Below are positions 24,040 to 24,730 of a stretch of 64,000 nucleotides of DNA, in pieces (the stretch's first letter is position 1; the number at the start of each line of letters is the position of its first letter). Below the pieces are notes generated by a model that was given only the letters and a program-made list of their open reading frames with translations, was not told the origin of the DNA and searched no databases. The position numbers and the translations under genes were made by a program. The stretch is from Escherichia virus TH22, in the sequence record MT446396.1; one strand, given 5' to 3'.

Positions 24040-24275
24040 TGTCTGAACAAACTATTGAACAAAAACTGCAGTCCGAAATCGTTATCCTTAAATCCCGTAT
24101 TCTGGACACTCAAGACCAGGCTGGCCGCATTAAAGCTGAATCTGACCAGTTTGTTAATGCGCTTGGTCAGATTGCCCAACTGGTTGGCGTGACTGGTGAA
24201 ACTGTTAAACTGGAAGATGTTATCCAGGCGGTTGCTGATAAAATTGCCCCGGCTCCTGCGCCTGACGAAGAATAA
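24039..24275 (+). CDS. 57A: Tail-fiber assembly chaperone gp57A
   Basis: 78 aa beginning [30 protein letters not shown], as T4 gp57A (79 aa). Confidence 0.85.
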
Positions 24276-24730
24276 TGACATTAAATGAAGTCTCTGAAGG
24301 ACTTTATGTTGCAGCCAAATTTTCAGAATTAACTCTTGACGCGCTGGAAAATCTTCAGCGCTCTCTTAAGGTACCTAATCCCGTTCCTCGTGAAAAATTC
24401 CATTCCACTATTTGTTATTCCAGAGTAAATATTCCTTATGTTGTTGCTTCAGGTAGTTTCGAAGTAGCCAACTCGGGTCACCTGGAAGTATGGAAAACTG
24501 ACGACGGGAGTACCCTGGTTCTTGTACTGGATTCAGATTATCTTAGTTGCAGACATATGTATGCACGAGCCATTGGCGCAACACATGATTTCCCGGACTA
24601 CACTCCTCACATAACATTGTCTTACAATGTTGGTCCTTTGACGTATAAAGGAGAAGTTCAGATTCCGGTTGTTTTAGACCGTGAATATAAAGAACCGCTA
24701 AAATTAAATTGGTCGGCGGATTTAAAGTAA
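24275..24730 (+). CDS. 57B: gp57B, 2H-phosphoesterase-fold protein (Acb1-like anti-CBASS nuclease candidate)
   Basis: 151 aa (T4 57B 152 aa); two H-x-T/S motifs (FHSTI, PHITL) typical of 2H phosphodiesterases; directly follows 57A. Confidence 0.75.

Follow-up and report, generated by a model that had tools for sequence, protein, structure and literature searches.

Acb1, the product of gene 57B of phage T4 and the founding member of the anti-CBASS nucleases, is a compact 2H phosphoesterase that holds its ligand by aromatic stacking largely independent of base identity and cuts the strained ligand 3′ of adenosine (PMC9117128). The enzyme requires at least one adenosine because E141 contacts adenine N6; the same study described what E141, W147 and lid residues 145–152 do, the catalytic role of H44 and T46 was derived from the structure and from H44A mutants, and H44A/H113A Acb1 was catalytically dead (PMC9117128). 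The homologue from Erwinia phage FBB1 (PDB 7T26, apo; 7T27, with 3′3′-cGAMP) binds and cleaves 3′3′-cGAMP, and nine further Acb1 homologues all cleaved both 3′3′-cGAMP and cAAA (PMC9117128). Acb1 prevents the activation of CBASS effectors (Hobbs et al., 2022; PMC9117128). Deletion of acb1 abolished cGAMP cleavage in T4 lysates, and T4 Δacb1 showed normal growth without CBASS and a >300-fold defect with CBASS (PMC9117128). An independent transposon screen also found acb1 to be conditionally essential on a CBASS host.

Assignment of gene 57B to the Acb1 family

The window analyzed here, a stretch of 64,000 nucleotides of Escherichia virus TH22 (MT446396.1), was predicted to encode a 151-aa orthologue of 57B, 2H-type and Acb1-like, at 24275–24730. 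In the list of open reading frames (ORFs) it was present at exactly those coordinates on the + strand. The gene and the segments of it that correspond to functional parts of T4 Acb1 were as follows:

24275..24730, + strand: acb1 (gene 57B), ORF with ATG start, 151 aa, with a Pfam Acb1 match and orthologues in T4 and VR7
24401..24409, + strand: first catalytic HxT motif, H43-S44-T45, equivalent to T4 H44/T46 in the alignment with T4 and FBB1 Acb1
24608..24616, + strand: second catalytic HxT motif, H112-I113-T114, within TPHITLSYN, equivalent to T4 H113/T115 by alignment
24692..24727, + strand: C-terminal segment with E140, W146 and lid residues, by residue mapping to T4 E141 and W147

The 57B protein matched Pfam family PF23474 (Anti-CBASS protein Acb1) with 200.6 bits (E 1.2e-59; curated gathering cut-off 27), the alignment covering residues 8–148 and profile positions 1–143 of 144. 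This was the sole Pfam family above threshold, and a search of NCBIfam with the protein gave no match. The best match among solved structures was the FBB1 enzyme (7t26_A, E 7.3e-63, residues 9–147). Identity amounted to 126 of 151 residues (83.4%) with T4 gp57B/Acb1 (NP_049750.1, from NC_000866), 97 of 139 (69.8%) with FBB1 Acb1, and 151 of 151 with VR7 gp57B (YP_004063838.1). Single-sequence AlphaFold2 prediction of the 151-aa protein was unusable (mean pLDDT 37.4, pTM 0.30); the approximately 70% identity to a crystal structure implies that the protein would adopt the 2H phosphoesterase fold of 7T26. The C-terminal lid segment was also present in the alignment. The family is widespread, with tblastn matches in 1,478 of 50,697 phage records.

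The Pfam match, the identity to T4 Acb1 and to 7T26, and the synteny described below thus agreed with the predicted assignment, and the equation of T4 57B with Acb1 was correct, the gene having been identified as such by Hobbs et al. (2022; PMC9117128). Judged from its sequence, 24275..24730 is very probably an ordinary, intact Gaprivervirus (VR7-type) orthologue of T4 acb1.

The two motifs on which the original prediction was based, FHSTI and PHITL, were both found in the translation (H43/T45 and H112/T114), and neither was lost on alignment with T4 57B/Acb1. Their spacing is likewise 2H-like as claimed, with 69 residues from H to H, as between H44 and H113 of T4 Acb1. By itself, the Hx[ST] pair is weak evidence and not beyond chance: at least two such motifs occurred in 15% of 20,000 shuffles of the 57B protein and in 6 of the 86 window ORFs of at least 100 aa. 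The strict 2H motif h-H-x-[ST]-h, wanted twice, was found only once, a proline preceding H112. That the feature lies far beyond chance is due only to the full-length family match (Pfam Acb1, PDB 7T26).

All nine residues with a function defined in Hobbs et al. (2022) were identical to T4 in the 57B protein. These are the catalytic tetrad (T4 H44/T46/H113/T115, here H43/T45/H112/T114), the base-stacking aromatics (T4 Y12/W74/F107/W147, here Y11/W73/F106/W146) and the glutamate contacting adenine N6 (T4 E141, here E140). The numbering is offset because the N-terminus is one residue shorter here (151 aa vs. 152 aa in T4). None of the 25 residues that differ from T4 Acb1 is functionally defined; three belong to the region of the C-terminal lid (N145, S147 and A148 vs. 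T4 D146, A148 and D149), and another, P107, adjoins the stacking F106 and is common to the FBB1 enzyme. The two HxT motifs, and with them the C-terminal Trp, also aligned with FBB1 Acb1, which differs in carrying F where T4 and the 57B protein have W73, in a one-residue insertion in the β-hairpin after residue 79, and in its first motif (HTT vs. HST).

At the DNA level, the gene was 96–99% identical to 32 records and 90–95% identical to one more; the matching records included Gaprivervirus VR7, VR20, VR25, VR26 and SP18, besides UPEC01 and others. Within 57B, the 13 nucleotide differences from VR7 were all third-position and synonymous, a pattern that indicates purifying selection on a protein that is expressed. 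The 24-kb stretch around the gene was a mosaic of the VR7-type group, of which no record covered more than 74%. Because of this mosaic and of the 96–99% identity of 57B to Gaprivervirus records, the window is, on sequence grounds, that of a VR7-like Gaprivervirus T-even phage and not of T4. The Gaprivervirus 57B genes (VR7, VR26, UPEC01, SP18, fPSFA) had the same neighborhood, and the VR7 and fPSFA proteins were 100% identical to the one encoded here. VR7, SP18, VR20, VR26 and YP_004063838 were not found in the searched supplements of Hobbs et al. (PMC9117128).

Gene neighborhood and expression signals

The gene order in the window was 4, 2, HNH (MobB-like), 3, 1 (dNMP kinase), 57A, 57B, IP-type (internal-protein) genes, trna.4 and trna.3. 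It was the same as in VR7, and the T4 order differs from it only in lacking the endonuclease and in how many IP genes there are. In both T4 and the window, acb1 directly follows 57A with overlapping stop and start codons and precedes the IP gene or genes, the position conserved for it in Tevenvirinae; downstream, T4 has ipI alone, and five unrelated IP-like genes are present here. The elements flanking 57B were:

24039..24275, + strand: gene 57A (tail-fibre assembly chaperone), directly upstream of 57B; Pfam PF17594 GP57, E 3.8e-25
24731..24771, + strand: intergenic element between 57B and the IP genes, with a promoter-like TGTACA-17-TATTAT (24731–24759) and an overlapping 7+3 bp hairpin, from promoter scan and folding
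24791..26298, + strand: five tandem IP-like genes with starts at 24791, 25132, 25413, 25767 and 26065, with MKT(Y/F)xEF..E-type leaders

The TAA stop of 57A and the ATG of acb1 share one base (TAATG), in place of the 4-nt ATGA overlap found there in T4 and VR7. This shared-base junction suggests that 57A and 57B are co-transcribed, and that their translation is probably coupled. The first third of 57A was nearly identical to VR7, and its 3′ two-thirds (~24125–24270) had diverged strongly from the VR7 and T4 sequences alike, while the flanking genes 1 and 57B were 97–100% identical to VR7; the diverged part resembles a patch of mosaicism or recombination. Further upstream, the HNH (MobB-like) homing endonuclease gene (22006..22680, + strand; PHROG 655, E 7e-57) was located between genes 2 and 3, at the same site as in VR7; it is absent there in T4. 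Downstream of the IP genes, tRNA-Met (CAT) was found at 27502..27575 (+ strand) and tRNA-Arg (TCT) at 27710..27785 (+ strand). In the stretches compared, the VR7 annotation contains only tRNA-Met in the matching region, where eight tRNAs are present in T4.

In the original prediction, 57B lay where the early region begins. This disagrees with what is known of T4, in which cyclic-nucleotide degradation begins approximately 15 min into infection (PMC9117128) and in which transcriptome compilations show 57B/acb1 to be predominantly middle/late. Scans for a promoter driving 57B gave several σ70-type matches (9–10 of 12 positions) on the + strand in 22661–24275, none of them decisive. The MotA-box matches closest to 57B on the + strand were at 11002 and 27416. 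A late-promoter-like TATAAATA was located inside gene 1 at 23821..23828 (+ strand), ~210 nt upstream of 57A; it was not conserved there in T4, and the motif was not enriched in the window (8 found vs. 5.8 expected). The same motif was also present at 25115..25122 (+ strand), 10 nt before the ATG of the ip9-like gene, a position in keeping with a head internal protein being expressed late.

The intergenic element contains the hairpin GTGTAGG...CCTACAC (−14.8 kcal/mol, z −1.79). The corresponding place in T4 is occupied by GTTTACA...TACTAT together with a hairpin of other sequence (GATGAGGTA...TACCTCATC); the putative promoter-plus-hairpin arrangement is thus conserved, and the stem sequence is not. 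Because it lies downstream of acb1, this σ70/T4-early-type promoter-like site cannot drive that gene, and it would serve the IP genes rather than 57B.

The leader present in all five IP-like genes is of a kind characteristic of T-even internal proteins. PHROG families of internal head or virion proteins matched four of the five, and the VR7 annotation names ip9, ip6 and others in the array. The prediction had also seen two anti-defense functions placed together here. The adjacency of 57B and the IP array stood, and the adjacency of acb1 and ipI had already been described as an anti-defense island by Hobbs et al. (PMC9117128). The anti-defense role of the IP genes did not stand as claimed: T4 IPI is the sole internal protein cited with a demonstrated anti-restriction role (PMC9117128), and no IPI orthologue was found among the five adjacent IP-like proteins, whose resemblance to T4 IPI was confined to the ~12-residue leader. 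An anti-defense role of these genes is plausible.

Several further observations concern the IP-like genes themselves. The mechanical start of the ORF at 24758..25123 (+ strand) is probably wrong, the match to PHROG 3966 beginning at residue 14. A GGAG stands 7 nt before the ATG at 24791, and translation from this codon gives MNIKTYNEFLAES, a leader of the IP type; the first IP-like gene is likely 24791..25123, encoding 110 aa. In VR7, the longer form is annotated as a hypothetical protein. Identical 20-nt sequences (catcaactactggagacaac) precede the ORF153c-like gene and the ip6-like gene. A second IP-like cluster of two genes was present at 38330..38921 (+ strand), and only the N-terminal MKT(Y/F)QEF(I/L)xE leader was common to the two clusters. 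An IPI orthologue was absent from both, and VR7 ip7 was apparently missing from the second.

Predicted mechanism and alternative functions

What the 57B protein does as an enzyme, which substrates it accepts and what part it plays in infection are inferred from the experiments with T4 and FBB1 Acb1. CBASS cyclic di- and trinucleotides with at least one adenosine (3′3′-cGAMP, cUA, cAAA) would be bound in a U-shaped pocket, with Y11, W73, F106 and W146 stacking on the ligand bases, E140 reading adenine N6, and the C-terminal lid shutting over the bound ligand. The 3′-5′ bond 3′ of adenosine would then be cut by metal-independent acid-base catalysis with the H43/T45/H112/T114 tetrad, via a 2′,3′-cyclic phosphate intermediate, to a linear product. 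With the second messenger destroyed, CBASS effectors would stay unactivated and the phage would escape abortive infection. Given the 83% identity and the full conservation of functional residues, there is little doubt in our assessment that the 57B protein would act as T4 Acb1 does.

A generic LigT-like 2H enzyme, either a 2′-5′ RNA ligase or an RNA 2′,3′-cyclic phosphodiesterase that acts on the ends of RNA (in tRNA repair, for example), would have in common with Acb1 the pair of HxT/S motifs and the 2H fold, the latter by homology to 7T26. It would differ in its substrate, an RNA end rather than a cyclic oligonucleotide, and Acb1 is smaller, with an Acb1-specific C-terminal lid. Such a function agrees with the name "RNA ligase" given to the family by RefSeq and PHROG 755, with the tRNA genes ~2.8 kb downstream of 57B, and with a sub-threshold similarity to PF13563 (2_5_RNA_ligase2) around the second HxT (residues 91–121; 11.9 bits, E 0.24). 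This score, the only further Pfam match obtained with the threshold relaxed to E 10, is far under the cut-off of 27 and compares with 200.6 bits for Acb1, and PF02834 was not among the matches at E 10. The stacking aromatics and the adenine-reading Glu, which are specific to Acb1, are all conserved. Moreover, T4 57B is biochemically a cyclic-oligonucleotide nuclease, and its deletion removed cGAMP cleavage from lysates and left growth without CBASS unaffected (PMC9117128). We consider an RNA-end function highly improbable. As a name for the family, "RNA ligase" is an outdated guess made at the level of the fold, contradicted by the T4 biochemistry and by the failed LigT-type profile test.

Equally improbable is that 57B encodes an Acb1 with a shifted substrate range, for example one preferring cA3 (directed against type III CRISPR, or triggering Panoptes) or acting on signals that T4 Acb1 leaves uncut. 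The 25 substitutions relative to T4, some of which are in or near the lid and beside F106, would leave room for such a shift, and the family is known to cut cA3, hence an interplay with cyclic-nucleotide systems such as Panoptes. However, every base-contacting or catalytic residue is identical to T4, P107 also occurs in the FBB1 enzyme, itself a binder and cleaver of 3′3′-cGAMP, and none of the nine additional homologues failed to cleave 3′3′-cGAMP or cAAA (PMC9117128). A measurable difference between VR7-type and T4 Acb1 in substrate range or kinetics appears only marginally less remote; if it existed, an altered balance in the cleavage of di- and trinucleotides could change the exposure of the phage to decoy-based guards, e.g., Panoptes. 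Least credible of all, to the point of being negligible, is that 57B is a remnant, inactive or in decay, that persists only through its overlap and coupling with 57A. The dispensability of acb1 on CBASS-free hosts and the existence of natural and selected loss-of-function alleles (Bas43; Bas35 escapers) would be compatible with decay, but the reading frame is intact and of full length with all catalytic residues present, the exclusively synonymous differences from VR7 (13 of 13) argue for purifying selection, and independent isolates encode the same protein with 100% identity.

Second anti-CBASS gene, annotation and significance

A second gene related to CBASS evasion was present in the window, 15.8 kb from acb1:

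40095..40373, + strand: Vs.4/Acb2 homologue (cyclic-nucleotide sponge), 92 aa; Pfam PF24729 Acb2_Tad1_hairpin and PDB 7uq2_A

Its product matched PF24729 with 58.2 bits (E 9e-16) and 7uq2_A ("Vs.4") with E 4.6e-30. Compared with the T4 protein, its terminal thirds were nearly identical, and its middle was diverged and contained a 5-residue insertion. With this gene alongside acb1, both known T4-type anti-CBASS genes are therefore present in the phage.

The Acb1 identity of 57B is already known, and nothing at this locus departs from known biology; nor does the locus make testable any question beyond those which T4 addresses already. Its value lies in annotation. The RefSeq and PHROG 755 label "RNA ligase" is carried, for example, by VR7_gp157 in NC_014792 and by T4p137 in NC_000866, and many GenBank records have "hypothetical protein"; only a few newer records are named "anti-CBASS protein Acb1", among them at least two from GenBank that are near-identical or related (PQ341120.1 and PQ871103.1). 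The "RNA ligase" or "hypothetical protein" labels of most public records can be corrected in the same way.

For the biology of the phage, the presence of 57B would mark it as equipped against CBASS signaling by adenosine-containing cyclic di- and trinucleotides. Acb1 activity renders T-even phages sensitive to Panoptes guard systems, and this phage is likewise predicted to be vulnerable to Panoptes-type guards that sense cyclic-nucleotide depletion.
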